Source of the DNA: Candidatus Brocadiia bacterium
Lineage (GTDB): Bacteria; Planctomycetota; Brocadiia; SM23-32
Length of the DNA: 64,000 nucleotides
Reading direction: 5' to 3'
NCBI GenBank assembly: GCA_046538485.1
Contig: JBKHIT010000018.1
Span: 11,603 to 75,602, forward strand
In this document: one piece after another, positions 10,150 through 32,069 of the stretch
How positions within the stretch are numbered: the stretch's first letter is position 1
Layout of the letters: every line of letters starts with the position of its first letter
The notes under the pieces: model-generated
What the model was told of the DNA's origin: nothing
What the model saw: the letters and a program-made list of their open reading frames with translations, nothing else
The model's database searches: none
Made by a program: the position numbers and the translations under genes

Positions 10150-10446
10150 ATGGTATATGTGCCATCTGAAAACGAAACCCCAATGACCGATCCAGAAACC
10201 AAAGAAGTCATAAACGACGTATTCGCCGAGGATTTTGAAATCCCCCGCGAGAAACTGCGGCCCGAAGCGCACATATTTGAAGACCTCGGGCTCGATAGCC
10301 TCGATGTCGTCGACCTGATTGCGGCCATTCAAAAGCGGTTTCAGGTACGCGTTCGCGACGACGAACGCGTGCGTTCGGTACGGACGCTTGGAGATCTTTA
10401 CGAATACCTGGAAACGGTCCGCAGCGAACTCGAGGCAAAGGATTGA
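10150..10446 (+). CDS. acyl carrier protein (ACP1)
   Basis: 98 aa with the phosphopantetheine attachment motif EDLGLDSLDVVDLI. AGGAAA lies 7 nt upstream of the ATG. Confidence 0.85.
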   Translation: MVYVPSENETPMTDPETKEVINDVFAEDFEIPREKLRPEAHIFEDLGLDSLDVVDLIAAIQKRFQVRVRDDERVRSVRTLGDLYEYLETVRSELEAKD

Positions 10447-10541
10447 ATAGGCGACCTGGATTCTTGAAACTGTAACAATGCAGTCCGGCGGGGTAATCGC
10501 GTTCGGGTACCTGAATCGATGAATAGACCATCGAGTAGACG

Positions 10542-11285
10542 ATGCTCGTAACCATACAGAATTTGGTGTTCTGGCCGCTTTTTCTGGCCGCGTCCGCTAT
10601 TTACATTCCCGTAGCAACCCTCATCATAGCCCCCATTGGTCTGCTTGCCCCGCGACGCTTTGCCATGCATCGGTTGCGCCGTACGATAACCTGGTATGGC
10701 CGGTTGGTTATCTGGTGCGCATGGCCTTTTGTACGGGTAAAATACAAGGATCTGAAACCGGAGGAAAAAGATGGGTCCTATATATTCATCTGCAACCATC
10801 GTTCCTCCTCGGACCCATTCCTCATGGCGTGTTTGCCTTTTGAGTGCGTTCAAATCGTTAACGACTGGCCTTTGGAACTCCCTATCCTGGGCTGGCTCGC
10901 CCGGCTGGCAGGATATATCGATATAATGAATACATCAATAGAAGAATTTTACGAACATGGTTCTCGTTTGTTGAATCAGGGTGCATGTATCTGTTCCTTC
11001 CCGGAAGGCACCCGATCGGGAAGCCAGCAGATGGGCCCTTTCACAAGCTCGGTTTTCCGGCTGGCCATCCGGAATCATGCCACTCTGGTTCCGCTGGCCA
11101 TCACCGGCAATGAAAATATCCCACATAAAGGATCCTGGATACTCCATCCGGGTCTTATCCGCGTCGACAAATTGCCCGCAGTTACCTGGGATGAGTACGC
11201 TGATATGGACGCGTTTCACCTGAAAAATCACGTGCAACAAATTTTGCAGGAGCATATCGACCGGGTCGAAGGAGATGCTGCATGA
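10542..11285 (+). CDS. lysophospholipid (1-acyl-glycerol-3-phosphate-type) acyltransferase, PlsC/LPLAT family
   Basis: HX4D block NHRSSSDPF and FPEGTRS block, with N-terminal TM helices. Confidence 0.85.
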   Translation: MLVTIQNLVFWPLFLAASAIYIPVATLIIAPIGLLAPRRFAMHRLRRTITWYGRLVIWCAWPFVRVKYKDLKPEEKDGSYIFICNHRSSSDPFLMACLPFECVQIVNDWPLELPILGWLARLAGYIDIMNTSIEEFYEHGSRLLNQGACICSFPEGTRSGSQQMGPFTSSVFRLAIRNHATLVPLAITGNENIPHKGSWILHPGLIRVDKLPAVTWDEYADMDAFHLKNHVQQILQEHIDRVEGDAA

Positions 11286-12580
11286 TTTTCACCAACTACG
11301 AAAAACTCGCGTGGAAAGCTCCCGACGAAATAAAACAAACCCAGAACGCGCTTTTGCGCGAGCACGTGGAATACTGCGCCGAGCATTCGCCGTATTATCG
11401 TCGGGTCCTGGATGAACCGGGCGTCTCCGATCTGGACATCTCGGTTGATTCCCTGCAAAAACTGCCCCTGACCCGCAAGGCAGATCTCGGGAAATATAAC
11501 GACGAATTCCTGGCGGTGAACCCCAAGAAGATAGTGGATATTGTATTTTCCTCCGGCACTACCGGCCCACCGACACGCATTGCCTACACGGAACACGACC
11601 TGGAAAGGTTGGCTTACAACGAACGCCAGTCGTTTTTGGGAACGGGAATGACGCCCGAGGATACGGTTTTACACACCTGCACGATGGACCGTTGTTTTGT
11701 GGCCGGACTCGCCTATTACCTGGGGGTGCGTAGCGTGGGAGCCGCCAGTATCCGCAGCGGTCATGCCCCCCTGGAAAGTCATTTGCAAATCCTGCGCCGG
11801 TCCGAGCCAACGGCGATTGTCGGCGTTCCTTCCTTCCTGAAAAAACTCGCGGAGTGTGCGGAACAAAACACTATCAATCCCGCCGATATGTCCGTCAAAA
11901 GTCTTGTATGTATTGGCGAACCCGTTCGCGACGAAAACCTGCAATATTTGCCTCTCGGTCGGATTATTCATGAAAAATGGGGCGCCGATGTCTACTCAAC
12001 CTATGCTTCCACCGAAGCGGTCACGACGTTCTGTGAATGCACCAAACAACAAGGCGGGCATCTCCATCCTGAATTGGCAGTGATTGAAATCGTCGATGAC
12101 CAGGGGGACCCGGTTAAGCCGGGTGAAAATGGCGAAGTTGTGCTCACTCCTCTGGGGACCGAAGGGATGCCCCTGATCCGTTATCGCACGGGCGATATCT
12201 CTTTCCTGCTGGAGGAGCCCTGTGGGTGTGGCCGAAACAGCGTCCGCCTGGGACCGATACTCGGACGCAAAAAGCAGATGATCAAATACAAGGGAACGAC
12301 GCTGTATCCGCAACCCATCGCCGCGGCCCTGCAAACCATACCCGCTATTGAAGAACATTATGTCGAAGTCGCGGGCGAAGAAGCCTTGTCCGATCAGCTC
12401 ACTATCCATGTCGCGGTCAGCGATCCCGAATGGGACGCCGATCGCATCGCCGCCCGACTGCAGTCACACCTGCGTGTAAAACCGGCGGTTGTTATCGAAG
12501 AGCTCGAGTCTCTGCGCAAAGAAGTTTTTGACCCCAAATATCGCAAGCCGATGCGTTTTGTTGACCGGAGGACCACGTGA
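11282..12580 (+). CDS. adenylate-forming ligase, phenylacetate-CoA ligase / coenzyme F390 synthetase-like (ANL superfamily)
   Basis: 432 aa with VFSSGTTGPPTRIAYT and an N-terminal ...HSPYYRRVL..., typical of the PaaK-like subfamily. ATGA overlap with the upstream gene. Confidence 0.8.
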   Translation: MIFTNYEKLAWKAPDEIKQTQNALLREHVEYCAEHSPYYRRVLDEPGVSDLDISVDSLQKLPLTRKADLGKYNDEFLAVNPKKIVDIVFSSGTTGPPTRIAYTEHDLERLAYNERQSFLGTGMTPEDTVLHTCTMDRCFVAGLAYYLGVRSVGAASIRSGHAPLESHLQILRRSEPTAIVGVPSFLKKLAECAEQNTINPADMSVKSLVCIGEPVRDENLQYLPLGRIIHEKWGADVYSTYASTEAVTTFCECTKQQGGHLHPELAVIEIVDDQGDPVKPGENGEVVLTPLGTEGMPLIRYRTGDISFLLEEPCGCGRNSVRLGPILGRKKQMIKYKGTTLYPQPIAAALQTIPAIEEHYVEVAGEEALSDQLTIHVAVSDPEWDADRIAARLQSHLRVKPAVVIEELESLRKEVFDPKYRKPMRFVDRRTT

Positions 12581-14061
12581 GTATTAACTGCCCAAACCCG
12601 ATAGATGGATTCGGCTTTTCTGAAGAAGAAATTGCCGAAACTGTGGAACGCAGGGGCCTGTTGTCAATGGAAATAGAATTTTCCCAGGCGTGCAATTTCC
12701 GTTGCCCATATTGCTATAACGAGGAGGCTTTTGAGGCTCAGGAACTGAAACCCGAAGAAATCGATGACGTCGTTATCCAGGCCAAAGAACTGGGCGCCAA
12801 AAAAATCATTATCCTTGGCGGCGAACCGATGATCTACCCCGAAATACGGGAGCGAATTGAATTTCTGCGGGAAAATGATCTCACGGTGGAAATGTTTACA
12901 AACGGGACAAATATGACGCCGGAAAACGCCCGTTTCATGTATGAACATGACGTCGCGGTGGTGCTGAAACTCAACACCTTCGACCGGGAGCTCCAAAACG
13001 AATTGACCGGTTGCGAGAAAGGGTATGAAATCATCCACAGTGCTCTGGACAATCTGCAGGAAGCCGGCTACCCCTCCCCCGCCAAACGCCTGGCGATAAG
13101 TACAATCATATGCCGCCAGAACATCGACGAACTTCCCGATCTCTGGCGATGGGCCCGTCAACGGGGAATCGAACCGTATTTCGAAATGATCACACCTCAG
13201 GGACGGTCCATTGCCAACGAATGGCTCCTGGCGCCGATTTCGGAACAGAAAGAACTATTCGATGAATTGTCCCGCATTGATCGCGAAGAATTCGATCACA
13301 AATGGGATCCCCAGCCTCCCCTGGTGGGCAACCGGTGTTTGCGTCACCAATTTTCATGTCTGGTTACTTCGGATGGCAATGTCATGCCCTGCGTTGGAGT
13401 AACGATTCCGATCGGCAATATCCGCGAAGAACCGCTTGAGCAGATTTTGGATCGTAGCGAAGTTATGGAAAAGCTACGGCACTTCTCGGAATACATCAGG
13501 GAGCCGTGTCGTTCGTGCGAAAGATCGGGCGGCTGCTACGGATGTCGCGGTAGCGCCTATCAGTTGACCGGTGATTTTCTGGCAGCCGATCCGTTCTGCT
13601 GGCACAATGAGGACAAAGAAATTCAAGCTCTGCCGCGTCAGGTTAAACCATTTCTACCCCACGAACGTCCCATGTTAATGGTCAAGGAACTTGTTTCGGC
13701 CGGCGAACGGCGGGGGAAAGTGCGCGCTACCCCGTTGGCAGAGGACATCTTCGTTAATGAAGATGGTGTGCTGGACGAAACGGCTTACGTTGAATTACTG
13801 GCTCAATCGATTGCCGCTGTACACGGTTTTCTTCAGAACGAAGAAGAACGAAAAAACCATGATGGCCTGCTCATGAGCGCCAGAAATGTAGAAGTCTCCG
13901 GGCTCGCTCATGTCGGGGATACCCTCGAGATAAGTGTTCACAAAACCGTTAAAATGGGTGATTTCGGGGTTGTGCAGGGTAGTATCAGTAAAGACGGTGC
14001 TGAAATAGCAAACGGACAGATTAGTATCTGGCAACCTTCCAACGGAGAAAAAACAATATGA
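12577..14061 (+). CDS. radical SAM / SPASM-domain enzyme fused to a C-terminal hotdog (dehydratase-like) domain
   Basis: CX3CX2C at aa 39-46 (CNFRCPYC). Eight further Cys lie in the SPASM-like region (C254, C261, C272, CRSC at 311-314, C320, C323, C341). Aa ~352-494 (nt ~13630-14061) begin LPHERPMLMVKELV and continue with AQSIAAVHGF, like the stand-alone hotdog dehydratase partners of APE-type clusters. Confidence 0.85.
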   Translation: MSINCPNPIDGFGFSEEEIAETVERRGLLSMEIEFSQACNFRCPYCYNEEAFEAQELKPEEIDDVVIQAKELGAKKIIILGGEPMIYPEIRERIEFLRENDLTVEMFTNGTNMTPENARFMYEHDVAVVLKLNTFDRELQNELTGCEKGYEIIHSALDNLQEAGYPSPAKRLAISTIICRQNIDELPDLWRWARQRGIEPYFEMITPQGRSIANEWLLAPISEQKELFDELSRIDREEFDHKWDPQPPLVGNRCLRHQFSCLVTSDGNVMPCVGVTIPIGNIREEPLEQILDRSEVMEKLRHFSEYIREPCRSCERSGGCYGCRGSAYQLTGDFLAADPFCWHNEDKEIQALPRQVKPFLPHERPMLMVKELVSAGERRGKVRATPLAEDIFVNEDGVLDETAYVELLAQSIAAVHGFLQNEEERKNHDGLLMSARNVEVSGLAHVGDTLEISVHKTVKMGDFGVVQGSISKDGAEIANGQISIWQPSNGEKTI

Positions 14062-14816
14062 AAAGACTTTCCTTCCTGATGATAATGGCTCTTCTTGCTT
14101 TTGGGCTCGCGTTTGGAGAAGAAAAAAAAGAGGGGAACGCCGAAAAGGATTCCAAAAAATCCGAAGAAAAACAGAAAGAAGCTAACGCCAAAGAGGAAGG
14201 CGAACCTGAGGAGGGGAAAAAAGAAGAGAAAAAGCCCGACAAACGGACTAAGAAAGAGATCATGGAGGATCTCGAAAAACACCTCTCCGAAATCGAGACG
14301 GTTCAGGCACGCTTTGTTCAGGAAAAACACCTCGCCATGTTTGAACGCAAAATGACCATCGAAGGACATCTGGCCGTCGCCAATCCGAATCAAGTGGCCT
14401 GGCATGTCCAGAAACCGGTCCGTTACCGGATGGTCATTTGTGGTCCGAAATTGAAACAATGGGAAGAAGATACCAACGAGGTAAAAACGCTCCGGTTGGA
14501 CAAAAACGCCACCCATAAGGTAGCATTCGAGCAACTCACCGCCTGGTTCGCGGGTCGGTACGGGGATCTGCGAGAACGCTACAATGTCGAAGTAATGGAC
14601 CGCGATCCTCTGACACTTACTTTCACGCCGAAAGAAGGTGGCGACATGGAATCGATTATCAAAAGTGTCCGGGTCGTGTTCCGCGACAATGAAGATTACC
14701 TGAAAAAGATAAAAATCACCCAGGGCAACGATGATGTGACAATAGTCCGCTTTTTTGATCTGCAACTGAACGAAAAAGTCGATGAAGAAGTCTGGAGGGT
14801 CCGCCCCGATGAGTAA
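14058..14816 (+). CDS. LolA-like periplasmic lipid/lipoprotein carrier protein
   Basis: Signal peptide MKRLSFLMIMALLAFGLAFG, then a K/E-rich linker, then a ~190-aa domain (VQARFVQEKHLAMFERKMTIEGHLAV...) resembling the LolA-like proteins paired with MMPL exporters. ATGA overlap upstream. Confidence 0.65.
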   Translation: MKRLSFLMIMALLAFGLAFGEEKKEGNAEKDSKKSEEKQKEANAKEEGEPEEGKKEEKKPDKRTKKEIMEDLEKHLSEIETVQARFVQEKHLAMFERKMTIEGHLAVANPNQVAWHVQKPVRYRMVICGPKLKQWEEDTNEVKTLRLDKNATHKVAFEQLTAWFAGRYGDLRERYNVEVMDRDPLTLTFTPKEGGDMESIIKSVRVVFRDNEDYLKKIKITQGNDDVTIVRFFDLQLNEKVDEEVWRVRPDE

Positions 14817-17205
14817 TGGGTGGTTCGAACGAATCTTTTGGGCCCTCTATCGCCGCCCGCTGGCCGTTATTATCGGGCTGGTGACCGTGGCGTTGCTGTC
14901 CCTGCTGGGGCTGAAAACAATTCCCTATGAGGGGGGGTTGGTGGCGATGCTGCCCGAGGGAAGCCGGGGCCGCAGGACAGTGGAATTTCTCCGCGATGCC
15001 CAGTTCGCCGACAAAGTTGCCGTAAGCATCACAGCCGAAGATCCAGACAGCGGCGTGGCGGATCTCATCGCCGTTATGGATGAACTGCGGGGGCAACTTG
15101 TAGACTCCTCTCTTATACGCCGCGTACAAACCCTGCCGGGTGGCAAAAACATGATGAAAGAGCTGGTATTCTTCCTCGATCATGCCCCCGAACTCCTCAG
15201 CGAGAACGACCTCGAAGGTTTGGAGAATCGGTTGAGCCAGGAAAAAATTCAAAAACGGATCAGAGAGTGTTACGTCAAACTGGCCCGCCCCGAAGGATCT
15301 TTTATGCAGGAGATTCTCCGACGAGATCCTCTCGGTATAAGCACTGTTATTCTGCAGCGTCTCCAAAAAATACCCGAGGCATCCGGTTATCATGTGATGG
15401 TTCAGAATGGTCACCTGATTCATCCTGACAAGCGACACGGCCTGCTGGTTATGGATGCTGCGATTTCTATTACCGATGGGGTGGGCTCGCGTCATCTTGT
15501 CGAAATGTTGCGGGAAACCACGTCGGATCTGCCCGATGGTTACACAGCAGATATTGTCTGCGGTCACCTGCATACAGTCAGTAACGAAGATCGTCTGCGT
15601 GCGGATATCCGCCTCACGGCGACCGTGGCGGGAGTAGGATTCTTCGCCCTGTTTCTTCTCATTTTCCGGGACATTCGTGCCGCACTCATATTCTTCATAC
15701 CAGCAATATCAATATTGGTCGCCGTTAACGGAGCCAGCTTTTTCATCCCGGAACTCTCTTATCTGGTGTTGGGTTTTGCACCCGTTATGGCGGGGATAGC
15801 CGTGGATTACGGCATCCACACCTTCATCGCCGTCCGGGACGGCAAAAACCCCTACGCCGCCGTGCGGCGCATAATCAGGCCCCTGATCATCGGCGCTTTG
15901 ACCACCGAATGCGTGTTTTTGGCGTTCTCTGTCTCCTCAATACCAGGCTACCGCCAGCTGGGCGGCCTGGCACTCGCAAGCATGGCTCTGTCGCTCTTTG
16001 GGGCTATTCTACTGTTGCCTCCGCTTGTAAAATATCCTGACTACTATCTGAAAATTGATCCCCAGGATGCACCGGAAGGGAAAAAAGGCTGGGCCATCTT
16101 CTTTCTTATCTCCCTGGGAATCGCCGGGCTCTTAACAACAAACCTCCAGATCGATCCCGGAGTGACAAAACTCGACGGCATCAGTGACGATATTTTGCAA
16201 ACTGAAAAAGAATTTAAACAACTTTGGGGCGGAGGAAAGGGCGGACAGGCAATCGCGGTAATCGGGGGCAAAACTTACGAAGAAACCGCTCGTCGCTGCG
16301 ATAAATTCCACAAACATATCAACTCGGCTCTTCCTAAACTGAACTTCATCAGCCGCAGTTCGGTCTGGCCCGCCAGGGCAAACCGCACCAAAAACGCCAG
16401 ACGCTGGGAGGATTTTTGGACAGCCGACCGTATCGAAAAAGTCCGCTCCAATGTGAGTGTGGCCGCCGAAAAGTATGGTTTCGCCGAAAATGCTTTCACA
16501 CCTTTCTTCGACCTGATTACCGAAGAATACACGGTGAGTTCCCAAACAAAAAAATCTATCATCCTGGAGCAGCTGGAACGGCGGTTTGTTAAAAAACGCA
16601 AAGGAGGCTATTGGTTTCTGGGATTCTTCCCGGATAACCCGGGCACGGTTGAAGCGGTGGCGAAAGAAGCCGAAAAATCCCCCTACAGTTTTGTGGTATC
16701 GCCCCGATCCCTCACCGGTACCCTGGCCGATTCGATCAGTTCAGAGGCCTTGCGGATTTCTCTGATCGCCGGCAGCTTAATCCTGTTCTTTACATTTTTC
16801 CTGATGCGAAATATCCGCCTGTCCCTGGCGGCATTGCTCCCCGCGGCCACCGGCGTAATTTGGTTGCTCGCGGTGATGTCAATATGCAACTTGCCCGTCA
16901 ATGTGGCTAATCTCATCGCGGGAATTGTCGTAATAGGACTCTGTATTGATTATGGTATCTTTATGGCACATGGCTGGGCGCAAGGCGCCAGGGTCCTCGT
17001 GCCGACATTGCAGGCAGTCACGCTCTCGGCCATCACTACGTTAATTGGCGCAGGCGTATTGGTTTTTGCCAAACATCCTGCTCTGTTCTCAATCGGCATC
17101 ACATTGGTTTTGGGAATATTTACAGGTTATGGAACGGCCGCTCTCGGCGTGCCGGGAATGTGCTCGTTGCTCGGGATCGATTCGGCGAAAGGAGATTCAG
17201 AATGA
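14809..17205 (+). CDS. MMPL/RND-superfamily exporter
   Basis: ~800 aa with two clusters of TM helices separated by large soluble domains. Start chosen at ATG 14809 (GGAGGG 9 nt upstream) rather than ORF-track 14782. Confidence 0.85.
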   Translation: MSNGWFERIFWALYRRPLAVIIGLVTVALLSLLGLKTIPYEGGLVAMLPEGSRGRRTVEFLRDAQFADKVAVSITAEDPDSGVADLIAVMDELRGQLVDSSLIRRVQTLPGGKNMMKELVFFLDHAPELLSENDLEGLENRLSQEKIQKRIRECYVKLARPEGSFMQEILRRDPLGISTVILQRLQKIPEASGYHVMVQNGHLIHPDKRHGLLVMDAAISITDGVGSRHLVEMLRETTSDLPDGYTADIVCGHLHTVSNEDRLRADIRLTATVAGVGFFALFLLIFRDIRAALIFFIPAISILVAVNGASFFIPELSYLVLGFAPVMAGIAVDYGIHTFIAVRDGKNPYAAVRRIIRPLIIGALTTECVFLAFSVSSIPGYRQLGGLALASMALSLFGAILLLPPLVKYPDYYLKIDPQDAPEGKKGWAIFFLISLGIAGLLTTNLQIDPGVTKLDGISDDILQTEKEFKQLWGGGKGGQAIAVIGGKTYEETARRCDKFHKHINSALPKLNFISRSSVWPARANRTKNARRWEDFWTADRIEKVRSNVSVAAEKYGFAENAFTPFFDLITEEYTVSSQTKKSIILEQLERRFVKKRKGGYWFLGFFPDNPGTVEAVAKEAEKSPYSFVVSPRSLTGTLADSISSEALRISLIAGSLILFFTFFLMRNIRLSLAALLPAATGVIWLLAVMSICNLPVNVANLIAGIVVIGLCIDYGIFMAHGWAQGARVLVPTLQAVTLSAITTLIGAGVLVFAKHPALFSIGITLVLGIFTGYGTAALGVPGMCSLLGIDSAKGDSE

Positions 17206-18307: not shown

Positions 18308-18310
18308 GAT

Positions 18311-21933: not shown

Positions 21934-21938
21934 AAAGA

Positions 21939-23285: not shown

Positions 23286-23354
23286 CCGTCTCCCGTTGAT
23301 AGCAACGGTCAGCGTGATTATACTTAATGGTCGATTTCCTTTGATAAAACTCGA

Positions 23355-23690: not shown

Positions 23691-23884
23691 CCCGAACTGG
23701 CCTGACGTTCGCTTTCCGATTCCCGCCACGCTTATCCCCCGGCACGAGCAGATTTCGATCTCAAGAACTGACAAAGATAGATAGCTGTGCGGAGTTCCGA
23801 AAAACAGAGCGGTTTTGAATTTTCCGCTCCGTCCTTTTAATTGCCATGCGGTTTCCCCAATAGTGGGATTAGAGCCAGCTCCTG

Positions 23885-25066
23885 ATGCTACCTCCCATTT
23901 ATATCACCGGTATAGGGCTTATATCCGCCGCCGGCGGCGATGTGTCGCAGACGTTGTCCTCCTTCAGGAACGGTGCCCCGGCTGCCGAACCGAAACCTTT
24001 CTCCGAAACAACCCTCGATTGCCCCGCTTTCCCGGCGGCCCAAAAGCCCCGATCCTCGCTCTGCCAGACCGATTGCCCGTCCCGAACCGTCGTCCTCGCC
24101 CTCCACGCCGTCGAAGAGGCACTCGAACGCGCCGGTCGACCCGACCGCGAAACAACCCTGCGAATCGGGGTCTGTATGGGCACAACCGTCGCCTGCCAGT
24201 TGAACAATCTCCGGTTCTACAAACAGTTTCGACAGACCTCCAGACCGTCCCTCGAACCGGTCCGTGATTTTCTCAATGGCAACCTCGCTCAATTTGTGGC
24301 CGCTTCACTCGATGCCCATGGCCCACGGGCAACCGTCGTAAACGCCTGCTCATCGGGCGCCGATGCCATAGGAATGGCTGTTCACTGGTTACAAAATGAC
24401 CTCTGTGATATCGCGGTGGCCGGTGGAGCCGACGAACTGAATCGAATCCCCATCTGCGGTTTCCACTCGCTCGGAATTATGAGCGACAATCCCTGCAAAC
24501 CCTTCGACAGAAACCGCGAGGGACTGAACCTCGGCGAAGGTGCCGGCGCGCTCGTGCTCGAAAGCGAAACCTCCGCGCGGAAACGCGGTCGAGAGCAAGA
24601 ACTGTTCCTGAAATCATACGCGGCCGGATGCGATGCCCACCATATCACTGCCCCGCACCCGGAAGGCGTGGGTCTGAAACTCGCGCTGGAATACGCCCTG
24701 AAATCGGCAGAGATCAAGCCGGACGATATCGCCTTTGTCAACGCTCACGGCACTGCCACCCCTGATAACGACCAGGTCGAGGGAAACGTGCTCGCCGAAT
24801 TTTTCGGCGAAGACCTCGTTTTCCTGTCCACAAAAGGATACACCGGCCATACGCTGGGCGCGGCGGGCGCGCTCGAAGCCGGTTTCACCGCCCTCGCCCT
24901 GCAAGTGGGCTGGCTCCCGGCTAATCGGGGCTTCCAAAACGCCGATCCCGATATCCCGATCTCCCCCCTCGTCGAGAAGACTCCGATCGTGGGCCGGGCC
25001 GCCGTTTCAACATCCCTCGCCTTCGGAGGCAACAACGCAGCCATCGTCATCGGGAGGGGAACATGA
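23885..25066 (+). CDS. beta-ketoacyl-ACP synthase (KS2, catalytically complete)
   Basis: VVNACSSGADA, CDAHHITAP, VNAHGTATPDND, GHTLGAAG. Confidence 0.9.
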   Translation: MLPPIYITGIGLISAAGGDVSQTLSSFRNGAPAAEPKPFSETTLDCPAFPAAQKPRSSLCQTDCPSRTVVLALHAVEEALERAGRPDRETTLRIGVCMGTTVACQLNNLRFYKQFRQTSRPSLEPVRDFLNGNLAQFVAASLDAHGPRATVVNACSSGADAIGMAVHWLQNDLCDIAVAGGADELNRIPICGFHSLGIMSDNPCKPFDRNREGLNLGEGAGALVLESETSARKRGREQELFLKSYAAGCDAHHITAPHPEGVGLKLALEYALKSAEIKPDDIAFVNAHGTATPDNDQVEGNVLAEFFGEDLVFLSTKGYTGHTLGAAGALEAGFTALALQVGWLPANRGFQNADPDIPISPLVEKTPIVGRAAVSTSLAFGGNNAAIVIGRGT

Positions 25067-26115
25067 TGGAGATCCAAGGATCAGGTGTAGTTTTCACCCA
25101 CGGTCGCGGGACGGAAGATCTGGACAAGATTTTGCGGGAAAATTGGATCCCCCCGGAGCGGCAGGATGTTCCGGGTCGCGACGCGCCAATGCCCGCATTC
25201 CGGGTGCCCAAAGAAACGCTCAAAGATAAAACCACCCTCAAGGGTATGCGCCGGGCGGATCGGCTCAGCCGGATGGCAACTCTCGCGGCCGCCGATGCCT
25301 GGCAAACGGCTTCGCTTGAAAACACCAATCCGGCGCGGGTGGGAATCATCCTCGCCACCGCCCTGGGGCCTCACGCCCGGACGTTTCAATTCCTCGACAA
25401 TATACTGGATTTCGGTGACGAGGCGGTCTCCCCAACAATTTTTTCGCATTCGGTGCACAACGCGGCGGCCTCGTATATCGCCACCACCCTCAATGTGCAC
25501 GGACCGGTCCTGACGGTCACGGATTTTGATTTTGCGTTCCAACAGGCGCTCGCTACCGCCCGGTGCTGGCTTGATCAGGACCGCTGTGATGCCGTGCTGG
25601 CCGGCACGGCCGAAGAACTCGGAGAAGTTATGCTCCACGTCTGCGGACGGATGGTCACAATGCCTGACAATGGAAGACCCAGACCGCTGGCTTTCGCCGA
25701 AAATCCCGTCATCGTCCCCGGGGAAGGAGCGGCTTTCTTCGTGCTCACCTCGGAAACCAGAGGTGAAGGAAGAGTTTCAGTAACGACCGCCAAATCCGAA
25801 AACGATGCGGACCTGACAATCCTCGATGCAGAGGGGCTTTCGGGATCGGAGATGGCTTATCGGGACCTCTTGCCAGAGACGGGCCAGGTGGCCAATTATT
25901 GCCCCGTGTTCGGAAGTATGATGACCGGCACCGCCCTGCAATGCACCATCGCGGAACTATCACTGCGAGGCCAGATGCGATACGCGAGTCCCCTGACAAA
26001 GGGGAAAGACCAACGGGCAGTATGCCTGGAAACGGGTCCTGCAGAGTTAAAAACTATTCGATGCGCCAAAGTCGGACGAGATGAGACGGTTCAAACGATT
26101 ACGCTCCGCCGGTAA
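25063..26115 (+). CDS. KS-like protein lacking catalytic residues (chain-length-factor-like partner of KS2)
   Basis: 350-aa thiolase-fold paralogue. The KS active-site position reads TVTDFDFAF (no Cys), and DAEGLSG replaces NAHGT. ATGA overlap with KS2. Confidence 0.7.
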   Translation: MMEIQGSGVVFTHGRGTEDLDKILRENWIPPERQDVPGRDAPMPAFRVPKETLKDKTTLKGMRRADRLSRMATLAAADAWQTASLENTNPARVGIILATALGPHARTFQFLDNILDFGDEAVSPTIFSHSVHNAAASYIATTLNVHGPVLTVTDFDFAFQQALATARCWLDQDRCDAVLAGTAEELGEVMLHVCGRMVTMPDNGRPRPLAFAENPVIVPGEGAAFFVLTSETRGEGRVSVTTAKSENDADLTILDAEGLSGSEMAYRDLLPETGQVANYCPVFGSMMTGTALQCTIAELSLRGQMRYASPLTKGKDQRAVCLETGPAELKTIRCAKVGRDETVQTITLRR

Positions 26116-26138
26116 ATGCGGCGACATGGATTGGATGA

Positions 26139-26405
26139 GTGAAAATGGCAGAAACTGAAAACGTCGAAAAGATCGAAGAGATTCTTCTCCGGGAAATTGC
26201 TACAATACTCTCCATGGGGGAGGCGGAGATCACGCCCACAACACCACTGGCCTCGGTAGGCATGGATTCCATCCGGTTTGTCGAAGTCCTTCTTCTCATC
26301 GAGCGAGAATTCGACGTGGAACTCATTAAATCTCAGTTGAGTCGCGACGACGTCAAAGACATCGCCTCACTCGCCCGCTCCATCCACGCCGCGAAACAAC
26401 AGTAA
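26139..26405 (+). CDS. acyl carrier protein (ACP3)
   Basis: Motif LASVGMDSIRFVEVLLL. The start is either GTG 26139 or ATG 26145. Confidence 0.8.
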   Translation: MKMAETENVEKIEEILLREIATILSMGEAEITPTTPLASVGMDSIRFVEVLLLIEREFDVELIKSQLSRDDVKDIASLARSIHAAKQQ

Positions 26406-26621
26406 ACAGTCGGCATCGGATTGGGGGGCGATGCCTGGAAACGTTGATAGCCCCTCCCACGTAATCCGGCGCGATTCGTGCCCGCCGCACTCCAGAGCCG
26501 GCTCCGCCGGCGGGGTGCATACCTCGGCCGGTTTTGAGACCTCCCGCCGCAAAGAACATTTTCCCCAACCCGGAGATGTTGGTGCAATCGGCCTGGGTGC
26601 TGTCCCGCGCGCCAACGGCGC

Positions 26622-26730
26622 GCTGTGGAGTGCGGTGTGTTGCGACGCGGCTGTGCCGCGACGCACTCACCGCTGTGCCGTTTGTCTCGTCATGAAACAA
26701 CTCAAAAACATCGCTTGTCCCCCCGGTCCG
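26622..26730 (+). repeat. 109-bp direct repeat, copy 1 (flanks the DUF1559 gene)
   Basis: Aligns to 27901-28009 with 97/109 identical positions by manual alignment, including a 36-nt perfect block tgccgcgacgcactcaccgctgtgccgtttgtctcg. It contains an imperfect hairpin tgcgRcgcggc-NNN-gccgcgacgca. Confidence 0.85.
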
Positions 26731-26784
26731 ATGTTGTGGACAAGTTGAACAGATCATCGTCGCCTTGCCCGCCACTTACTTCCG

Positions 26785-27681
26785 CTAATCCAGCCACTTC
26801 GTGTCAAGAACAAGTGTATTGAAGCTGTTCGGATCGGGGTAATAAGCCGAACGGGGATAGTGGGCAGCGTTGCCCCCCACGAACATCATGTTCGCTCCAT
26901 CAAGATGGTGCAGCCCGACAGTATGAACAGGGTGGTACTTAGATGGGACGTTACTGGGCCAGGTTGCGGAACCACCGACCAGCGAACACGCCTCAATGTC
27001 GGTGTAATGGCGTGCTCCCCACGACATTGGTCCGCCACACTCAGAGCTTTCAGGAACACATCCCCATGTCTGACCATTCTCATTATGTGGATTCCCACTG
27101 ACGAGAAGCGCGTGTGTGGTCGCAAGATTCCTCATTCTCCTGGCACGCACAATACAACCGTCCGTGTAGCGGAGGTGGTTGCGCCAGGTGCCCCCCTGCG
27201 TGAGAGACGTGCTCGTGGCCGGCATTTTGTAATCCACACCGTATCCCCATCCCCACCACCAGCCTCCGCCTCTTGGCCTTGATTCCGGAGGTTTGAGCGC
27301 CGGACACTGAAGCAGCGGAACATTGGGCCTCACCTGCGTATACATAAACGACTGGCTACCGGGCTGGTACTCGGGACCGCTCTGCAGATAGGTGTAGACG
27401 ATCGGCCAGAAATTGATGGTGTTCGTAAATTCACTGTATCTTCCGTTGTGCTCGGGGGAATCCGGCCGACACCACTCGGAATCATTGGGAAGCATACCCT
27501 CGTGGTCATTCGCGAACATCTGGAACCCCAAACCGATCTCGCGCAACTGGGAAATACAGCTTATGGAACGAGCCGCTGCCCGCGCCCTCTCCAGTGCCGG
27601 CATCAACATTGCGGCCAGAATGGCTATGATTGCAATAACAACAAGAAGTTCTATTAAGGTAAATGCCTCTTTCTCTCTCAT
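26785..27681 (-). CDS. prepilin-type N-terminal cleavage/methylation protein, DUF1559-like (type II secretion pseudopilin-like)
   Basis: Start at ATG 27681 (GGAGG 9 nt upstream). [30 protein letters not shown] is the class-III signal/methylation motif. The C-terminal [13 protein letters not shown] block is as in planctomycete DUF1559 proteins. Confidence 0.85.
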
Positions 27682-27900
27682 CTCCCGCACCCTCCCTTTT
27701 TGATAAAACCCACAATCCAACGTCGAGATTAATATCCCCCCCAAAATTACAAAACTGTTATCCACCCACTTCGCTTTGTGCATTTTTATAGCAAAATTCA
27801 TACTCAACACCTGTAACTTAGTGTACCCCCTGCACAAAGTTTTTCAACCCCCGTGAATGCTATTTTGCTGCCGCTAAAAATCTACCCAACGGATCGGCAC

Positions 27901-28009
27901 GCTGTGGAGCGCGGTGCGTTGCGGCGCGGCTATGCCGCGACGCACTCACCGCTGTGCCGTTTGTCTCGCCATGAAAGAACCCAAAGACATCGCCTCTCCC
28001 CCAGATCCG
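27901..28009 (+). repeat. 109-bp direct repeat, copy 2
   Basis: See copy 1. Same orientation, on the other side of the pseudopilin gene. Confidence 0.85.
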
Positions 28010-28111
28010 AAAAAGACAAAAACGTCGTCCTTCACCTTGCGTTTTTTACCTCTCAAGCGATACTCTAACCAAACGCATCGACTTTGTACAAACACAAAAG
28101 CAAACATCCCT

Positions 28112-29455
28112 ATGGATATCTCGCTGCCCTGTTCCAGCCAAAAACGGTACCTCACCGGGATCGACTGGTCGATCAACGCACTTGACGCCATTACTAAACA
28201 GGCGACCGGACACGGAAACTCCTCGCAGGTAATCCTGGTCCTTAATGGACGGCTTGACCCCGCCGACCTCGCCGATCTGCTTCGAAAGATCTTCAAAGGC
28301 CATCCCGTTCTGAGCGGAAATCTCGGCCGCGATTGGAGTCTCTGCCCCTGCTGGCGCATGCCGGGAAAGCCCCCGCGCAACCTTCCACTGTCCGTAACCA
28401 CCGAAAAAGACGATTGGGAGGAAATATTCCTCCGGTTCCAGCGTCATGTTAACCAACCGTTCGCCGGAGAAAGACAACATCTTCACTTCCACCTGGTAAA
28501 CTGCGGATCCCGACGTTCTTACCTGGGAATGCACTTTGACCATCGTCTGCTCGACGCATTCGGGGCCGAAGCATTCCTTGAATTGATCCAGCAAACCCAC
28601 CAGGGGAAGCAATCGGCCATCACAGAACAGATCAGTCTGGTCGAAGACGCCCATCTCGATCATTGGGCGCGCCGTTTTCAGGGAGGCAAAGCCGTCAACC
28701 GCCTCCAGATTCGACTTTCACGCGGCGGAGTTGCGGCTTTCCCCACCCCCGCGCTTATCCCCCCTCTCTCAACACGGTTCAATCTGACGACACTCTCGGA
28801 AGAGGAGACCGAACAGCTTGTCGAACGTGCATTCGGCACCGCCGGCTATTTTATGCTGCTTCCCTCGCTGCTGGCGGGCGTGGTCAGAGCGCTTGACCGT
28901 CTGGCCCGAAAACGTGGGCGCCCGGCAGGTCACTACATAATCCCCGTCTCCGTTGTAAACCGCACACCGCAGGAAAAATGGGAAAAACTTTTTTTCAATC
29001 ACGTCTCCTTTATTATCTTCCAGATTCCCGTGAAATTGGCGCGCGAACGCTCGGGGCTGGTCAAATTTCTGCGGGATCGTCTCTACGATCACATGAAAAG
29101 CGGCACCCCCGACGATTTCTACCACGCGAGCATGCTGACTCGTATCGTCCCCCTCCCGCTGATGCGCATGCTGGCAAAAATACCAATGCGCGGACAGATC
29201 GGCACCAGCTATTTTGCCTGCCTGAAAGAATCCGGATACAATTCGTCCGAATTCATGGGACTCGAGGTCGAAAACCTGATCCACACCCCCCACGTGCCCC
29301 CGCCGCCGGGGGTCGGTGTCTTCCTGAACCAGTTCCGCGGGCGTTTCAATCTCATGCTGTCCCATCTTGAAGGCATCTTTTCTTCGGAAGAAGCCAGTAA
29401 ATTGACAACACAGATGAGGAGAGAACTCGTTGGCGAACCGACCGAAGACATTTGA
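28112..29455 (+). CDS. HxxxD acyltransferase, condensation-domain / WS-DGAT / PapA5-like
   Basis: ~447 aa from ATG 28112 (the ORF-track N-terminus runs through the repeat and is probably not translated). GMHFDHRLLDAFG matches the HHxxxDG-type catalytic motif of the CAT/condensation superfamily. Confidence 0.6.
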   Translation: MDISLPCSSQKRYLTGIDWSINALDAITKQATGHGNSSQVILVLNGRLDPADLADLLRKIFKGHPVLSGNLGRDWSLCPCWRMPGKPPRNLPLSVTTEKDDWEEIFLRFQRHVNQPFAGERQHLHFHLVNCGSRRSYLGMHFDHRLLDAFGAEAFLELIQQTHQGKQSAITEQISLVEDAHLDHWARRFQGGKAVNRLQIRLSRGGVAAFPTPALIPPLSTRFNLTTLSEEETEQLVERAFGTAGYFMLLPSLLAGVVRALDRLARKRGRPAGHYIIPVSVVNRTPQEKWEKLFFNHVSFIIFQIPVKLARERSGLVKFLRDRLYDHMKSGTPDDFYHASMLTRIVPLPLMRMLAKIPMRGQIGTSYFACLKESGYNSSEFMGLEVENLIHTPHVPPPPGVGVFLNQFRGRFNLMLSHLEGIFSSEEASKLTTQMRRELVGEPTEDI

Positions 29456-30611
29456 CGTAATAGTCGCCGGGGCTGGCCCCGCCGGGATAGCGACCGCCCT
29501 CTCGGCGGCCCGTGACGGAATGAAAACCCTCCTCATCGAACGGGAAAATACGATTGGGGGAATCGTTATGGCCGGTTACCACGCCGCTCTCTGTGGCCTT
29601 TACGCAAGCGATCCCACGGACCCTGCCGACACTCTCAATCCGGGCATCCCCCGGGAAACCGCATGCTGTGTAAGCGAAAATTCAAAAAATGCCAGCGGAG
29701 TGCAACAGGTGGGGCGGGCGCGTGTGCTTCCGCTCGAACGCGCCGCGCTGCTCCGTTGCTGGGAGGGGATGCTTGCTGCCGAACTTGAAATCGAACTTCG
29801 TTATGAAACGACGCTGATCGGGGTGAAATGCGCTGACAACTGTGTGGAGACAATCCAACTCTCCGACGGTTCGGAACTCCGACCGGGGGTGCTCATTGAT
29901 GCCACCGGGAACGCGGAAGTGGCCGGACTCGCCGGTGTCCCCCGCCTGGCAGATCCTCCGGAAAACCGTCAGCTTGGTGGCGCCGGCATATATTTCGGCG
30001 GTTTAACTGCCGACCGCAACCGACTACGACTCGACGTGCCGTACCATCTCCGAGAAGCGACCGAAGACGGGCGGCTCCCTCATTGCGCAAGGTTCACGAC
30101 GTTCGCCCCCTGCGCCGAGCCCGACCGGGGAATCTGTAAACTGGCCGTGCCGGTGGAGTTCTTCGGTCAGAACCAGAAGGTAAAAACGTATATTAATGAC
30201 GTGCTTGAACTTCTGCGGAAAGATCTTCAGGTATTGGCTGAGGCTGAAGTACTGGCCACTTCGCCCCGGGCGTTGCCACGTGATGGTCCGCGGCTGCGGG
30301 GACAAACAATTCTGACGGAAGAGGATGTGCTTGCCGGAAAGACTTTCAAAGGCCACAATGCAAAGGGAGCCTGGCCCATCGAGTTCTGGCACCAGGAAGA
30401 AGGTCCACAGTACGAATATTTGCCCGATAACGAATATTACGAGATCCCGGCGGCGTGTCTGCGCGCGGAAAGACTCCACAATCTTATCTGTGCCGGCCGA
30501 TGCATCTCGGCAACCGCCCGCGCCGCAGCATCGTTGCGCGTGGCGGGGATATGCCTGGCCACGGGGCAACTGGCGGCTGTGACCGCGTGTGAACTGCTCA
30601 CGGAAATGTGA
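29430..30611 (+). CDS. FAD-dependent oxidoreductase
   Basis: FDVIVAGAGPAGIATALSAARDG (GxGxxG) directly at the N-terminus. TTG start preceded by GAGGAG. Confidence 0.8.
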   Translation: MANRPKTFDVIVAGAGPAGIATALSAARDGMKTLLIERENTIGGIVMAGYHAALCGLYASDPTDPADTLNPGIPRETACCVSENSKNASGVQQVGRARVLPLERAALLRCWEGMLAAELEIELRYETTLIGVKCADNCVETIQLSDGSELRPGVLIDATGNAEVAGLAGVPRLADPPENRQLGGAGIYFGGLTADRNRLRLDVPYHLREATEDGRLPHCARFTTFAPCAEPDRGICKLAVPVEFFGQNQKVKTYINDVLELLRKDLQVLAEAEVLATSPRALPRDGPRLRGQTILTEEDVLAGKTFKGHNAKGAWPIEFWHQEEGPQYEYLPDNEYYEIPAACLRAERLHNLICAGRCISATARAAASLRVAGICLATGQLAAVTACELLTEM

Positions 30612-30617
30612 GACCCC

Positions 30618-32069
30618 ATGAACATCGCCGAAAAAATTCGCATGGAAAACGCCAACCGCAGGGACGGTGCAGCCGTGATCGAAGGATCGAAACAATGGAC
30701 CTACGGCGAAGTGTTCCAAAAAATCGATGTTCTGCGCGATTTGCTCGCGCCCCGGGGCATCGGACCCGGGACGCGGGTCGCTTTCCGCTGCGAGGACGGC
30801 ATCGAATACATCGCGTGGAGTCTCGCCCTGCTGGAATCAGGTGCAGCGATCGTGCCGGTTTCCACAGACCTCACCCAAACAGAAACGAACGAAACACTGG
30901 AACGCATCGACGTCCACGGTTTCCTCTCGCAGGCTGAAAACCCCGGATCCTCGCCGGAGGGAGAAGTCCTGACGGGACATGGTTTCGAGGAAGATTTTCT
31001 CTGGCAAGCCCGAGAGCCCCGTGGCACAGCTCCTGAAGAATGCGAGGAGCTGAACGCTGCCTTCATCCGCTTCTCCAGCGGCACAACGGGCGCCAGTAAA
31101 GGCGTGGTCCTCACCCACCAGAGCATCATCGATCGCACTGATGCCGCCAATGAAGCCCTCGGAATCTCCCCGGAGGACATCATCCTTTGGGTACTGTCGA
31201 TGAGCCATCATTTCGTGGTCTCAATCCTCCTGTTTCTCCGAAAGGGTGCGACAATCGTCATCGGCCACCGCGATTTCCCCACATCGCTGCTTGATGCCGC
31301 CACCGAAGGGGATATTACCTTTATTTACGCATCGCCCGTGCATTACGAAATCCTGGCAGAGACCGATGCCGTTTCGGCCGAAGATCTGGGAAACGTACGG
31401 ATCGCCATCTCCACGGCCATGAAACTGCCGCCGGCGATCGCGCGAAGTTTCGCCGAGAAATTCGGTTTTGAGCTCGCCGAAGCTTACGGAATAATCGAAG
31501 TGGGGCTGCCATTCATCAACCTGAACCCCGGTCGCACAAGCCGCGGATCGGTCGGGCGGATGCTCGACGCATACAAACTGAAAATTGATAATAAAGATGA
31601 CTCCGGGGTGGGCGAAGTATTCGTCCGGGGACAGGGCATGTTCGACGCCTATTTCTCGCCATGGTGTCCGCGTGAGGAGGCGCTGGAAGACGGCTGGTTT
31701 CGGACGGGCGATTTGGGCAAACTCGACGAAGAAGACAACCTCCAGATCGTAGGCCGCAGTAAGACTGTCATCGTATGCGCCGGGATGAAAGTCTTCCCCG
31801 TTGAGGTGGAGGCTGTATTGAACGCTCATCCGGCGGTAGAAGAATCGCTTGTCTACGGGGCCGATCATCCGACCTACGGCCAGATTCCCGAGGCGCGTAT
31901 CGTCCCGGCGGACCCGGAAGCAGATACAGCAGAACTGACCGACCAACTGCGCAAGTTCTGCTACGATCGCCTGACCGCCTACAAAGTGCCGAAAGCTTTC
32001 ATTTTCGTTGAAGATCTCCCGCGAACCCCCAGCGGCAAACTGGTGCGGCACCAGCAGAAGGGAACCTGA
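30618..32069 (+). CDS. acyl-CoA synthetase / fatty acyl-AMP ligase (ANL superfamily)
   Basis: FSSGTTGASKGVVLTH, WFRTGDLGKLDEEDNLQIVGRSK, PRTPSGKLVRH. Confidence 0.9.
   Translation: MNIAEKIRMENANRRDGAAVIEGSKQWTYGEVFQKIDVLRDLLAPRGIGPGTRVAFRCEDGIEYIAWSLALLESGAAIVPVSTDLTQTETNETLERIDVHGFLSQAENPGSSPEGEVLTGHGFEEDFLWQAREPRGTAPEECEELNAAFIRFSSGTTGASKGVVLTHQSIIDRTDAANEALGISPEDIILWVLSMSHHFVVSILLFLRKGATIVIGHRDFPTSLLDAATEGDITFIYASPVHYEILAETDAVSAEDLGNVRIAISTAMKLPPAIARSFAEKFGFELAEAYGIIEVGLPFINLNPGRTSRGSVGRMLDAYKLKIDNKDDSGVGEVFVRGQGMFDAYFSPWCPREEALEDGWFRTGDLGKLDEEDNLQIVGRSKTVIVCAGMKVFPVEVEAVLNAHPAVEESLVYGADHPTYGQIPEARIVPADPEADTAELTDQLRKFCYDRLTAYKVPKAFIFVEDLPRTPSGKLVRHQQKGT

Follow-up and report, generated by a model that had tools for sequence, protein, structure and literature searches.

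A Candidatus Brocadiia operon with three radical-SAM genes: a reduced member of a widespread cluster family resembling flexirubin and aryl-polyene systems

Introduction

A 2026 review names ladderanes and jawsamycin as the only cases in which radical S-adenosylmethionine (rSAM) chemistry on ketoacyl lipids has been proposed (PMC13459092). Clusters that combine rSAM genes with an extended type II fatty acid synthase (FASII) were described in 2009 by Rattray et al., who found the clusters of the anammox bacterium Kuenenia to be syntenic with clusters of Desulfotalea psychrophila, Geobacter and Pelobacter (PMC2649909). The genes common to these clusters encode SAM-radical proteins, a phenylacetyl-CoA ligase and an unknown lipid-transport membrane protein, together with non-canonical FabF paralogues, a glycosyltransferase and a polysaccharide-deacetylase-like protein (PMC2649909); the gene list of the Kuenenia cluster is given in PMC4790861. 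'Ladderane-type' gene clusters have repeatedly been reported in the same non-anammox phyla, with function unknown (PMC9902471), and the 'ladderane' calls of one paper were 1.2-kb ketosynthase (KS) fragments in Enterobacteria (PMC11968836); the antiSMASH 'ladderane' rule is evidently a broader one, and the present family is not equated with that class. Here, a gene cluster with three rSAM genes is analysed that lies at positions 10150–32069 of a 64,000-nt stretch of Candidatus Brocadiia DNA (i.e. positions 11,603–75,602 of contig JBKHIT010000018.1, assembly GCA_046538485.1). This whole stretch is referred to as the window, and all coordinates are window positions.

The other systems that the locus resembles are the flexirubin (flx) clusters of Chitinophaga and Flavobacterium and the aryl-polyene (ape) clusters of E. 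coli and Xenorhabdus. The accessory set of the flexirubin cluster consists of a polysaccharide deacetylase, an acyltransferase, LolA, a glycosyltransferase and an exporter, and FlxY was shown experimentally to be a 4-coumarate-CoA ligase (PMC3992019).

The window cluster is read here as an operon of a widespread, strongly collinear family of type II fatty acid synthase/polyketide synthase (PKS) lipid clusters of anaerobes, of flexirubin/aryl-polyene type and with three rSAM enzymes as its hallmark. A probability of roughly 0.6 is assigned to this reading, including the stepwise pathway set out below. The locus adds a new member, in reduced form, to a known and chemically unsolved cluster family and does not represent a new kind of system. 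A preliminary description of the DNA, made from the sequence alone, had called its product 'undescribed'; this was overstated, as one of the rSAM proteins (i.e. g13) falls in a curated NCBIfam family and FASII-plus-rSAM clusters were published in 2009 (PMC2649909).

Results and discussion

Conservation and extent of the cluster

The distribution of the cluster was examined by scanning one genome per species for relatives of g13. A total of 344 species genomes encode such a relative, and the best 80 loci of these 344 genomes were compared. They derive from sediment 'Brocadiaceae'/Planctomycetota metagenome-assembled genomes (MAGs), Lentisphaerae, Verrucomicrobiota, Omnitrophota, Hydrogenedentota, Tepidisphaeraceae, Desulfobacterota, Geobacteraceae/Desulfuromonadales and Nitrospirota/Thermodesulfovibrionia. 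Gene order was determined by tblastn of all window proteins against the related loci. From Planctomycetota to Nitrospirota and Geobacteraceae, a recurrent order was observed, in which g3–g13 are followed by extra genes, by g14, g15, g16, g17, g20 and g21, often by a third g12-like rSAM gene, and by g22; the order is identical to that of the window in L004, L007, L032, L050, L055, L071, L073 and others. Among the 31 loci that are fully flanked (i.e. with 10 kb on both sides), the export, dehydratase, thioesterase and KS set was found upstream in 28, and 22 have the second set of KS and acyl carrier protein (ACP) genes as well. Additionally, in 47 of the 56 loci having enough upstream DNA, the gene next upstream of g13 is g12. 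This recurrence of the g12/g13 adjacency and of both halves across loci indicates that the rSAM genes are an integral part of the cluster, i.e. conserved neighbours of the KS/ACP core and not there by chance, contrary to the refuting outcome that the preliminary description had named.

The window copy is a reduced variant without the glycosyltransferase and second acyltransferase of the family. The extra genes between the g13 and g14 homologues encode a GT2 glycosyltransferase with a membrane C-terminus (67/80 loci) and an LpxL-like acyltransferase (57/80), genes that were examined in L003, L004, L007, L014, L032, L034, L050 and L055, and in some relatives a polysaccharide-deacetylase-like gene lies between g14 and g15 (18/80). 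No homologue of any of the three was detected by tblastn anywhere in the 64-kb window, where the g13–g14 gap measures 70 bp. The same reduced layout was observed in L083, a contig from a different Planctomycetes assembly; its g20 and that of the window share 95% identity. Since L083 lacks the same three genes, the reduced form is a lineage trait.

The region 10150–32069 is a single biosynthetic operon. It contains 20 plus-strand genes, named g1–g17 and g20–g22 (Table 1), with eight 4-nt ATGA/GTGA start/stop overlaps (at 11282, 12577, 14058, 17202, 17921, 18799, 20683 and 25063). Domains were called by Pfam and NCBIfam scans of the window open reading frames (ORFs). The 20 genes and all eight overlaps of the preliminary description were recovered, as was every domain that it listed, on the evidence of Pfam, NCBIfam, active-site columns and the predicted fold of g20. 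Its list of missing functions was also borne out, there being no ketoreductase (KR), enoyl reductase (ER), malonyl transferase (MAT), methyltransferase, glycosyltransferase or ammonia-lyase domain in any cluster ORF, and the gaps between cluster genes are too small to house a gene for one of these. No SDR domain (the ketoreductase type of ApeQ and FlxB,V) was detected in the cluster ORFs or seen among the extra genes of eight related loci, and an ammonia-lyase/chorismate-derived route, a methyltransferase/halogenase and DarA/DarB were not found among the window ORFs scanned. The flanks consist of unrelated genes (i.e. a V-type ATPase operon, PTS EIIA, TsaB-like, Usp and Tad/VWA proteins). The boundaries stand at 10150 and 32069 because the flanking ORFs, 9269–9943 (minus strand) and 32270–32908, have no counterpart in related loci.

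Table 1. Genes of the cluster and the insertion within it, with window coordinates.
Feature	Position	Strand	Assignment	Evidence
g1	10150–10446	+	Acyl carrier protein (DSL serine)	PF00550 47.5 bits
g2	10542–11285	+	Lysophospholipid/glycerol acyltransferase (LPLAT, PlsC-type)	PF01553 74.9 bits; TIGR00530 53.7 bits, below cutoff
g3	11282–12580	+	PaaK-family adenylating ligase, FlxY-like (aryl/cinnamoyl-type acid activation)	NF053551 FlxY_rubin
g4	12577–14061	+	Radical SAM + SPASM fused to C-terminal FabZ-like hotdog (~aa 350–494)	PF04055 86.6 bits; PF13186 42.4 bits
g5	14058–14816	+	Periplasmic LolA-like carrier	PF03548 74.7 bits; LolA2_flexi 87.5 bits (cutoff 125); N-terminal signal sequence
g6	14782–17205	+	RND-type (HAE3/HpnN/MMPL-like) membrane transporter	NCBIfam models below cutoff
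g7	17202–17924	+	Lipoprotein, lipobox LTGC after 17202 start, no family assignment	Sequence
g8	17921–18307	+	ApeI-like/FabA hotdog dehydratase half with GHFP His, without Glu	PF22818
g9	18311–18802	+	4HBT/YbgC-type thioesterase	PF13279 47.9 bits; PF03061 38.1 bits
g10	18799–19926	+	Ketosynthase, Cys-His-Lys-His active-site set	PF02801 + PF00109; active-site columns
g11	19982–20686	+	Truncated KS-N-like partner (chain-length-factor-like, ApeC-sized, 234 aa)	Profile–profile comparison
g12	20683–21933	+	B12-binding radical SAM, no curated family	PF02310 38.5 bits; PF04055 27.1 bits (just below cutoff)
g13	21939–23285	+	B12-binding radical SAM, TIGR04072 member (family marker)	TIGR04072 601.8 bits
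g14	23355–23690	+	Acyl carrier protein (DSL)	PF00550 39.5 bits
g15	23885–25066	+	Ketosynthase, Cys-His-Lys-His set	PF00109 + PF02801; active-site columns
g16	25063–26115	+	KS-like partner without catalytic triad (chain-length-factor-like)	PF00109 52.2 bits; PF13723 48.2 bits
g17	26139–26405	+	Acyl carrier protein (DSI)	PF00550 41 bits
Insertion	26616–28010	.	Insertion with 116-nt direct repeat (26616–26731, 27895–28010; 89% identity)	Flanks g19
g19	26785–27837	−	N_methyl + DUF1559 'pseudopilin-like' gene	Pfam
g20	28109–29455	+	Free-standing condensation-domain (HxxxD) acyltransferase	AlphaFold2 + Foldseek
g21	29430–30611	+	FAD (flavin adenine dinucleotide)-dependent oxidoreductase, not CrtI/phytoene-desaturase-type	PF12831 196.6 bits
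g22	30618–32069	+	FadD-type acyl-AMP/CoA ligase	PF00501 182.7 bits; PF13193 71.4 bits

Relation to the FASII-plus-rSAM clusters described in 2009

The gene content of the window family was compared with the published lists for kuste3335-3352 of Kuenenia and the Desulfotalea, Geobacter and Pelobacter clusters. Adjacent rSAM genes, a phenylacetyl-CoA-ligase-type enzyme, a lipid-transport membrane protein, FabF with non-canonical FabF paralogues, several ACPs and a FabZ-type dehydratase are shared, whereas the glycosyltransferase and polysaccharide-deacetylase-like protein of those lists occur here only in relatives of the window cluster. The Kuenenia cluster reportedly has FabG, phytoene-desaturase-like enzymes and SAM methyltransferases (PMC4790861), none of which is present in the window; the window in turn differs in having a condensation-domain enzyme and a PF12831 FAD enzyme. 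From these gene lists, the name of the NCBIfam model for g13 and the Geobacteraceae/Desulfuromonadales loci among the relatives, the family is most likely the FASII-plus-rSAM type of Rattray et al. 2009, and we are highly confident that the locus belongs to a described family.

A flexirubin/aryl-polyene-like first half

Matches to FlxY, LolA2_flexi, ApeI-like and ApeO sequences identify g1–g11 as a flexirubin/aryl-polyene-type module without a KR, in agreement with the aryl-polyene-like core proposed in the preliminary description. The ligase g3 scored 478.8 bits (E 1.2e-143) on the FlxY_rubin model, just under the cutoff of 520, and its junction with g2 is an ATGA overlap. The score of g8 on the ApeI-like family PF22818 was 37.9 bits, above the cutoff of 28.5, and its best Protein Data Bank (PDB) matches were 3esi and 6qsr (ApeI). 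The ApeO structures 6qsp_A and 7f28_B were among the PDB matches of g10 and g15. Homologues of g1 head the cluster in L014, L027 and L037, and the thioesterase g9 has a median identity of 56% over 48 loci.

The anchoring and export set of aryl-polyene and flexirubin clusters is present (i.e. LPLAT g2, LolA-like g5, RND transporter g6 and lipoprotein g7). The earlier labelling of g6 as an MMPL protein fell short in Pfam, in which MMPL gave 18 bits against a cutoff of 20.5, while its transporter character was upheld by NCBIfam, which groups it with the HpnN/HAE3 RND transporters (TIGR03480 HpnN, 80 bits; TIGR00921 HAE3, 79.6 bits; both below cutoff). No Pfam or NCBIfam match was obtained for g7, which is kept at the same position in 38 of the 80 loci.

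Ketosynthase active-site columns were read with anammox amxFabF2 as the reference. The Cys/His/Lys/His residues are kept in g10 and g15 and not in g16 and g11. The latter two had been described as KS-like partners; g16 has Pfam KS matches, whereas g11 lacks any Pfam match and was found to be KS-N-like by profile–profile comparison only. With hhalign, the g11 family aligned to KS columns 68–189, i.e. the N-terminal half (Prob 87.8%, E 3.3e-6), and the g11 profile gave a weak match to residues 63–191 of T. thermophilus FabF in the PDB (E 0.0039). A phmmer search of the PDB produced noise only, and the pLDDT of a single-sequence AlphaFold2 model was 35. The same 234-aa gene is carried by L083. 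By its profile alignment, g11 is an ApeC-sized, truncated KS partner.

In total, the features shared with flexirubin and aryl-polyene clusters are a FlxY-like ligase, a LolA2-like carrier, an RND exporter, a lipoprotein, an LPLAT, a 4HBT thioesterase, an ApeI-like dehydratase and a KS with a truncated KS-N-like partner. The deacetylase and glycosyltransferase of the flexirubin accessory set occur in relatives of the window cluster. Unlike those clusters, the window cluster is without a KR, methyltransferase, ammonia-lyase, DarA/DarB and, in this copy, glycosyltransferase; beyond them it has three rSAM enzymes, a second pair of KS and partner, a condensation-domain enzyme and a FadD-type ligase. 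The carriers of window-type clusters also differ in being anaerobes.

A SPASM radical-SAM enzyme fused to half of a predicted split dehydratase

The nearest NCBIfam models to g4 were AhbD, NirJ2 and PqqE, all far under cutoff, and its C-terminal ~145 residues matched FabZ models over their full length, weakly. Hotdog residues of g8 and g4 were aligned to amxFabZ as a canonical reference, using the window protein and seven homologues of each. In all g8 sequences the His of GHFP is kept and the Glu (at the position of IIEAMAQ in amxFabZ) is replaced by A, T or Q. The g4 hotdog domains show the complementary pattern, in which the GHFP His is absent and the Glu is kept (VELLAQ or PEIISQ). In FabZ and FabA, the active site is located at the dimer interface, with the His contributed by one subunit and the acid by the other. 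The complementary pattern therefore predicts that g8 and g4 pair obligately, as a heterodimer sharing one active site, an arrangement that would link the SPASM rSAM domain physically to dehydration. A SPASM rSAM enzyme fused to the Glu half of a split dehydratase, with the His supplied by an ApeI-like g8, was not met in the literature searched.

Two B12-binding radical-SAM enzymes

The best-conserved protein of the cluster is g12, with a median identity of 68% in 74 of the 80 loci. Its sequence contains a CxxxCxxC motif. In the window, g11 and g12 share a 4-nt ATGA overlap, and the end of g12 (21933) and the start of g13 (21939) are 5 nt apart.

The TIGR04072 score of g13 exceeds the equivalog cutoff of 360 bits, with a match along the whole of g13. 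NCBIfam gives this model the short name rSAM_ladder_B12 and the product name 'lipid biosynthesis B12-binding/radical SAM protein'; a literature search found no paper on TIGR04072 or on a 'lipid biosynthesis B12-binding' protein. The g13 protein is 100% identical to an NCBI protein of a 'Candidatus Brocadiia bacterium' MAG and has ~6,000 database relatives. The next-best NCBIfam models were BzaD (196 bits) and the TsrM family (134 bits), both far below the cutoffs of those models, and the nearest solved structure was TsrM (6wte, 116 bits). TsrM and BzaD both methylate sp2 carbons in a cobalamin-dependent manner. They have the B12-binding plus rSAM architecture in common with g13; substrates in the window cluster would be carrier-bound lipid or aryl-polyene intermediates, as opposed to tryptophan or benzimidazoles. 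Because these nearest characterised relatives are C-methylases, methylation is the leading guess for g13.

A third B12-binding rSAM gene, resembling g12, was observed between the g21 and g22 homologues of L014, L024, L027, L032, L037, L038, L051 and L073; none is present in the window.

The second half of the cluster

The ACP g14 has a median identity of 61% in 52 loci. The best PDB match of g15 was amxFabF2 (9s5h_B, 191.6 bits); T. thermophilus FabF scored 182.1 bits. Neither Cys nor His occupies the catalytic columns of g16. At the position two ahead of the Cys column, g16 proteins of PVC-group loci carry Asp and those of Desulfobacterota/Nitrospirota loci carry Gln, a pattern reminiscent of the Gln of KS-Q/type II PKS chain-length factors, in an alignment whose register is ambiguous by two positions.

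An AlphaFold2 prediction of g20, made with 44 homologues, gave a confident model (pLDDT 91.1, pTM 0.91), which shows a predicted condensation-domain fold. The top Foldseek matches were all condensation, epimerisation or cyclisation domains of nonribosomal peptide synthetases and their relatives (AzeD, TM 0.73, E 3.7e-19; further CDA-C1, SrfA-C, EpoB-Cy and TRI3). Residues F143-D144-H145 and D149 (i.e. F-D-H-x3-D) are invariant across the 44 homologues. A search of PDB sequences with the g20 profile matched only the HxxxD segment of E2 acyltransferases. One g20 homologue (P0334) is fused to a g21-type FAD domain. The best NCBIfam model for g22 was long-chain-fatty-acid-CoA ligase (259 bits, below cutoff). 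Together with the ACP g17, the enzymes g20, g21 and g22 may form a small load-and-condense unit.

Proposed pathway and product

A radical-modified lipid of the outer membrane, aryl-polyene-like and not a ladderane, is the most likely product. In the proposed pathway, the FlxY-like ligase g3 would activate an aromatic or cinnamoyl-type acid as starter for the ACP g1, and the chain would be extended by the KS g10 with its truncated partner g11. As there is no KR in the cluster, ketoreduction would be supplied by a housekeeping FabG. The g8 and g4 hotdog domains would act as one heterodimeric dehydratase, holding the SPASM rSAM domain where the ACP-bound beta-hydroxy or enoyl intermediate appears, and this domain may then modify the growing chain. 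Further elongation, or the building of a second chain, would fall to g15/g16 with the ACP g14. The chain is probably methylated by g13, and g12 could perform methylation, cyclisation or C–C coupling. An acid would be loaded on the ACP g17 by g22, the condensation-domain enzyme g20 would link the two moieties as an ester or amide, and saturation may be adjusted by the FAD enzyme g21. The thioesterase g9 would edit or release the chain, g2 would anchor the acyl product on a lyso-lipid, and g5, g6 and g7 would carry it to the outer membrane; by analogy, such esterification and export are plausible. The outline of the chemistry is given about an even chance of being correct, and confidence in the individual rSAM reactions is low.

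Several observations weigh against this reading. No member of the family has a known product, so that every chemical step is an inference. True aryl-polyene and flexirubin clusters possess a dedicated KR, which this cluster does not. The sub-cutoff FlxY score of g3, with no gene for an ammonia-lyase or other aryl-precursor enzyme, leaves the aryl starter unproven, and the predicted g8/g4 heterodimer is based on complementary residues only. The likeness to the 2009 clusters is one of gene lists. In this genome, g20–g22 are cut off from the genes before them by the DUF1559 insertion and could be less well expressed as a result. Finally, the halves are rearranged or apart in two Tepidisphaeraceae loci: L046 has g12, g13, g22, g20, g17 and g14 without the export half, and in L074 g13 is joined directly to g1–g11, the g12-like match being only 24% identical. 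This hints that the halves are separable modules, which in some cases may not contribute to a common product.

Comparison with anammox Cluster I and alternative explanations

A ladderane or a direct ladderane precursor as the product is suggested by the Candidatus Brocadiia label of the source, by the 'ladder' in the short name of TIGR04072, by amxFabF2 as the top PDB match of g15 and by the KS/inactive-KS heterodimers of the putative ladderane cluster (bioRxiv 10.64898/2026.05.19.726425), i.e. Cluster I (kuste3603-3608). The sequence of 9s5h_B was rebuilt from the alignment and identified as amxFabF2 because its relatives, at identities of at least 70%, are exclusively anammox (Brocadia, Jettenia, Kuenenia, Scalindua and others); it led to the anammox contig L081, where positions 9194–15449 encode an ACP, amxFabZ, amxFabF2, amxFabFmut, a CrtI-type PDH and a B12-rSAM protein. 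Cluster I and the window cluster follow a common logic, in that each brings together in one operon a dedicated ACP, a KS and its inactive KS partner, a dehydratase of the hotdog type, a flavoenzyme and a B12-rSAM enzyme. The proteins, however, are distant. Identity between amxFabF2 and g15 is only 33%, as against the 70% or more among anammox orthologues. Over 129 residues, amxFabFmut is 29% identical to g16, and on the fabF model TIGR03150 it scored 338 bits, as a full-length FabF derivative unlike g16 (48 bits) and g11. The Cluster I B12-rSAM protein is nearest to g12 (28% identity; 22% to g13) and, at 87.9 bits, is not a member of TIGR04072 despite the nickname of the model. No CrtI-type desaturase is encoded in the window, a 37-residue FAD motif being all that PDH and g21 (PF12831) have in common, and g8 is ApeI-like and not amxFabZ-like (34 bits on ApeI-like structures, 25 bits on the amxFabZ structures, 8ayd). 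An export set is missing from Cluster I, and the LolA/RND/lipoprotein set of the window is ill-suited to a lipid of the anammoxosome. The family occurs in hundreds of non-anammox genomes, and D. psychrophila carries such clusters and makes no ladderanes (PMC2649909). On these comparisons, the window cluster is neither orthologous to Cluster I nor the putative ladderane cluster, and shares at most a distant common logic with it. A ladderane product is thus very improbable, in line with the preliminary description, which had seen no grounds for naming it a ladderane.

A further alternative is two independent, side-by-side pathways with different products, i.e. an aryl-polyene-like export cluster (g1–g11) and an rSAM/KS/condensation module (g12–g22). 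The rearrangements in L046 and L074 are compatible with this, as are 6 of the 31 fully flanked loci that have the first half and no complete second half within 10 kb; yet some of these 'missing' second halves reflect insertions that push the genes past the 10-kb flank. We consider two pathways unlikely, given that g11, g12 and g13 follow in immediate succession and in the same order in at least six phyla, with overlapping or nearly touching reading frames in the window, that g12 so regularly precedes g13, and that another rSAM enzyme, g4, sits inside the first half, fused to its dehydratase. An anaerobic, O2-independent route to polyunsaturated fatty acids (PUFAs) or hydrocarbons, in which the rSAM and FAD enzymes desaturate ordinary acyl-ACPs, was proposed by Rattray et al. 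for the Kuenenia and Desulfotalea clusters, D. psychrophila being a producer of C31:8 and C31:9 hydrocarbons (PMC2649909). An FAD oxidoreductase and an rSAM enzyme fused to a dehydratase half, in a cluster with no KR or ER, would suit such a route, and the nearest models to g4, AhbD and NirJ, represent enzymes of oxidative decarboxylation to vinyl groups. Elsewhere in bacteria, however, such hydrocarbons derive from a Pfa synthase and OleABCD (PMC6463001), and no polyunsaturated products were obtained when the Kuenenia genes were expressed heterologously, in an experiment in which the two rSAM proteins were undetected (PMC4790861). The FlxY-like ligase, ApeI-like dehydratase, truncated KS partner and export set point to an exported lipid of flexirubin/aryl-polyene type and not to bulk PUFA, making this route quite improbable. 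Chance juxtaposition or a binning or assembly artefact would be conceivable for a MAG, and is virtually negligible in view of eight translationally coupled junctions, the same gene order in the independent, 95%-identical contig of another assembly and collinearity in dozens of unrelated assemblies; the synteny refutes it.

A bolder version of the preferred reading, in which the cluster belongs to a radical-modifying, aryl-polyene-like lipid family, is that its products form a new lipid class of polyenes that are cyclised or cross-linked by radical chemistry. The dehydratase-tethered g4 and the highly conserved g12 would forge C–C bonds, as rings or cross-links, in a carrier-bound ketoacyl/polyene chain, and Cluster I, with its g12-like B12-rSAM, would be a specialised offshoot of this older and widespread pathway. 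This is speculative and rather improbable. If it were true, the ancestral state would be represented by Brocadiia genomes of non-anammox type, such as the present one.

Implications

The cluster family places three rSAM enzymes in a fatty-acid/polyketide-type pathway in at least 344 species of anaerobes, making the locus a good entry point to rSAM chemistry on ketoacyl lipids. Some carriers belong to culturable and possibly genetically tractable genera, in which the chemistry may be easier to solve than in anammox bacteria. The identity of the product would explain the 'ladderane-type' calls outside anammox bacteria, would give a function to TIGR04072 and to the g12 family, which is conserved better still, and might possibly reveal radical chemistry on carrier-bound acyl chains that preceded ladderane biosynthesis. 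The gain from this window alone is modest, i.e. one more member, in reduced form.

The insertion between g17 and g20

The reverse-strand pseudopilin gene noted in the preliminary description does interrupt the cluster; it is a recent insertion and not a member of the family. This gene (i.e. g19) was found in none of the 80 related loci, nor in L083. The single g17–g20 spacer of L083 is collinear with the left repeat copy of the window and then with the right copy, indicating a recent insertion with target duplication. The insertion is specific to this genome and not part of the biosynthetic family. As the 36-nt core of the repeat was found at the two insertion flanks only, it is not a dispersed repeat. 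Two earlier gene calls were revised. The ORF at 26431–26748 lies in the duplicated spacer, has no counterpart in related loci and is repeat-derived rather than a gene. Similarly, the first 65 codons of the ORF at 27914–29455 are repeat-derived, and g20 starts near 28109 and not at 27914.

The g17–g20 spacer (window 26406–26784; L083 7979–8404) is unusually long, ~430 nt, and near-identical in both genomes. It contains a GC-rich near-palindrome, GCGACGCGGC TGT GCCGCGACGC, without an Rfam match.

Other features of the window

A search with Rfam at gathering thresholds gave no match within the window, and promoter and terminator scans performed no better than on shuffled sequence. Upstream of the cluster, an operon for a V/A-type ATPase (A, B, E, I and C/AC39 subunits) occupies positions 182–7941 on the minus strand. 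Downstream, at 35950–43150, there are two paralogues with TadE/G-like, Tad_C and VWA domains (35950–37497 and 41486–43150), and two more TadE/G-like proteins are encoded in the interval; the arrangement points to duplication of a Flp/Tad pilus-associated set.

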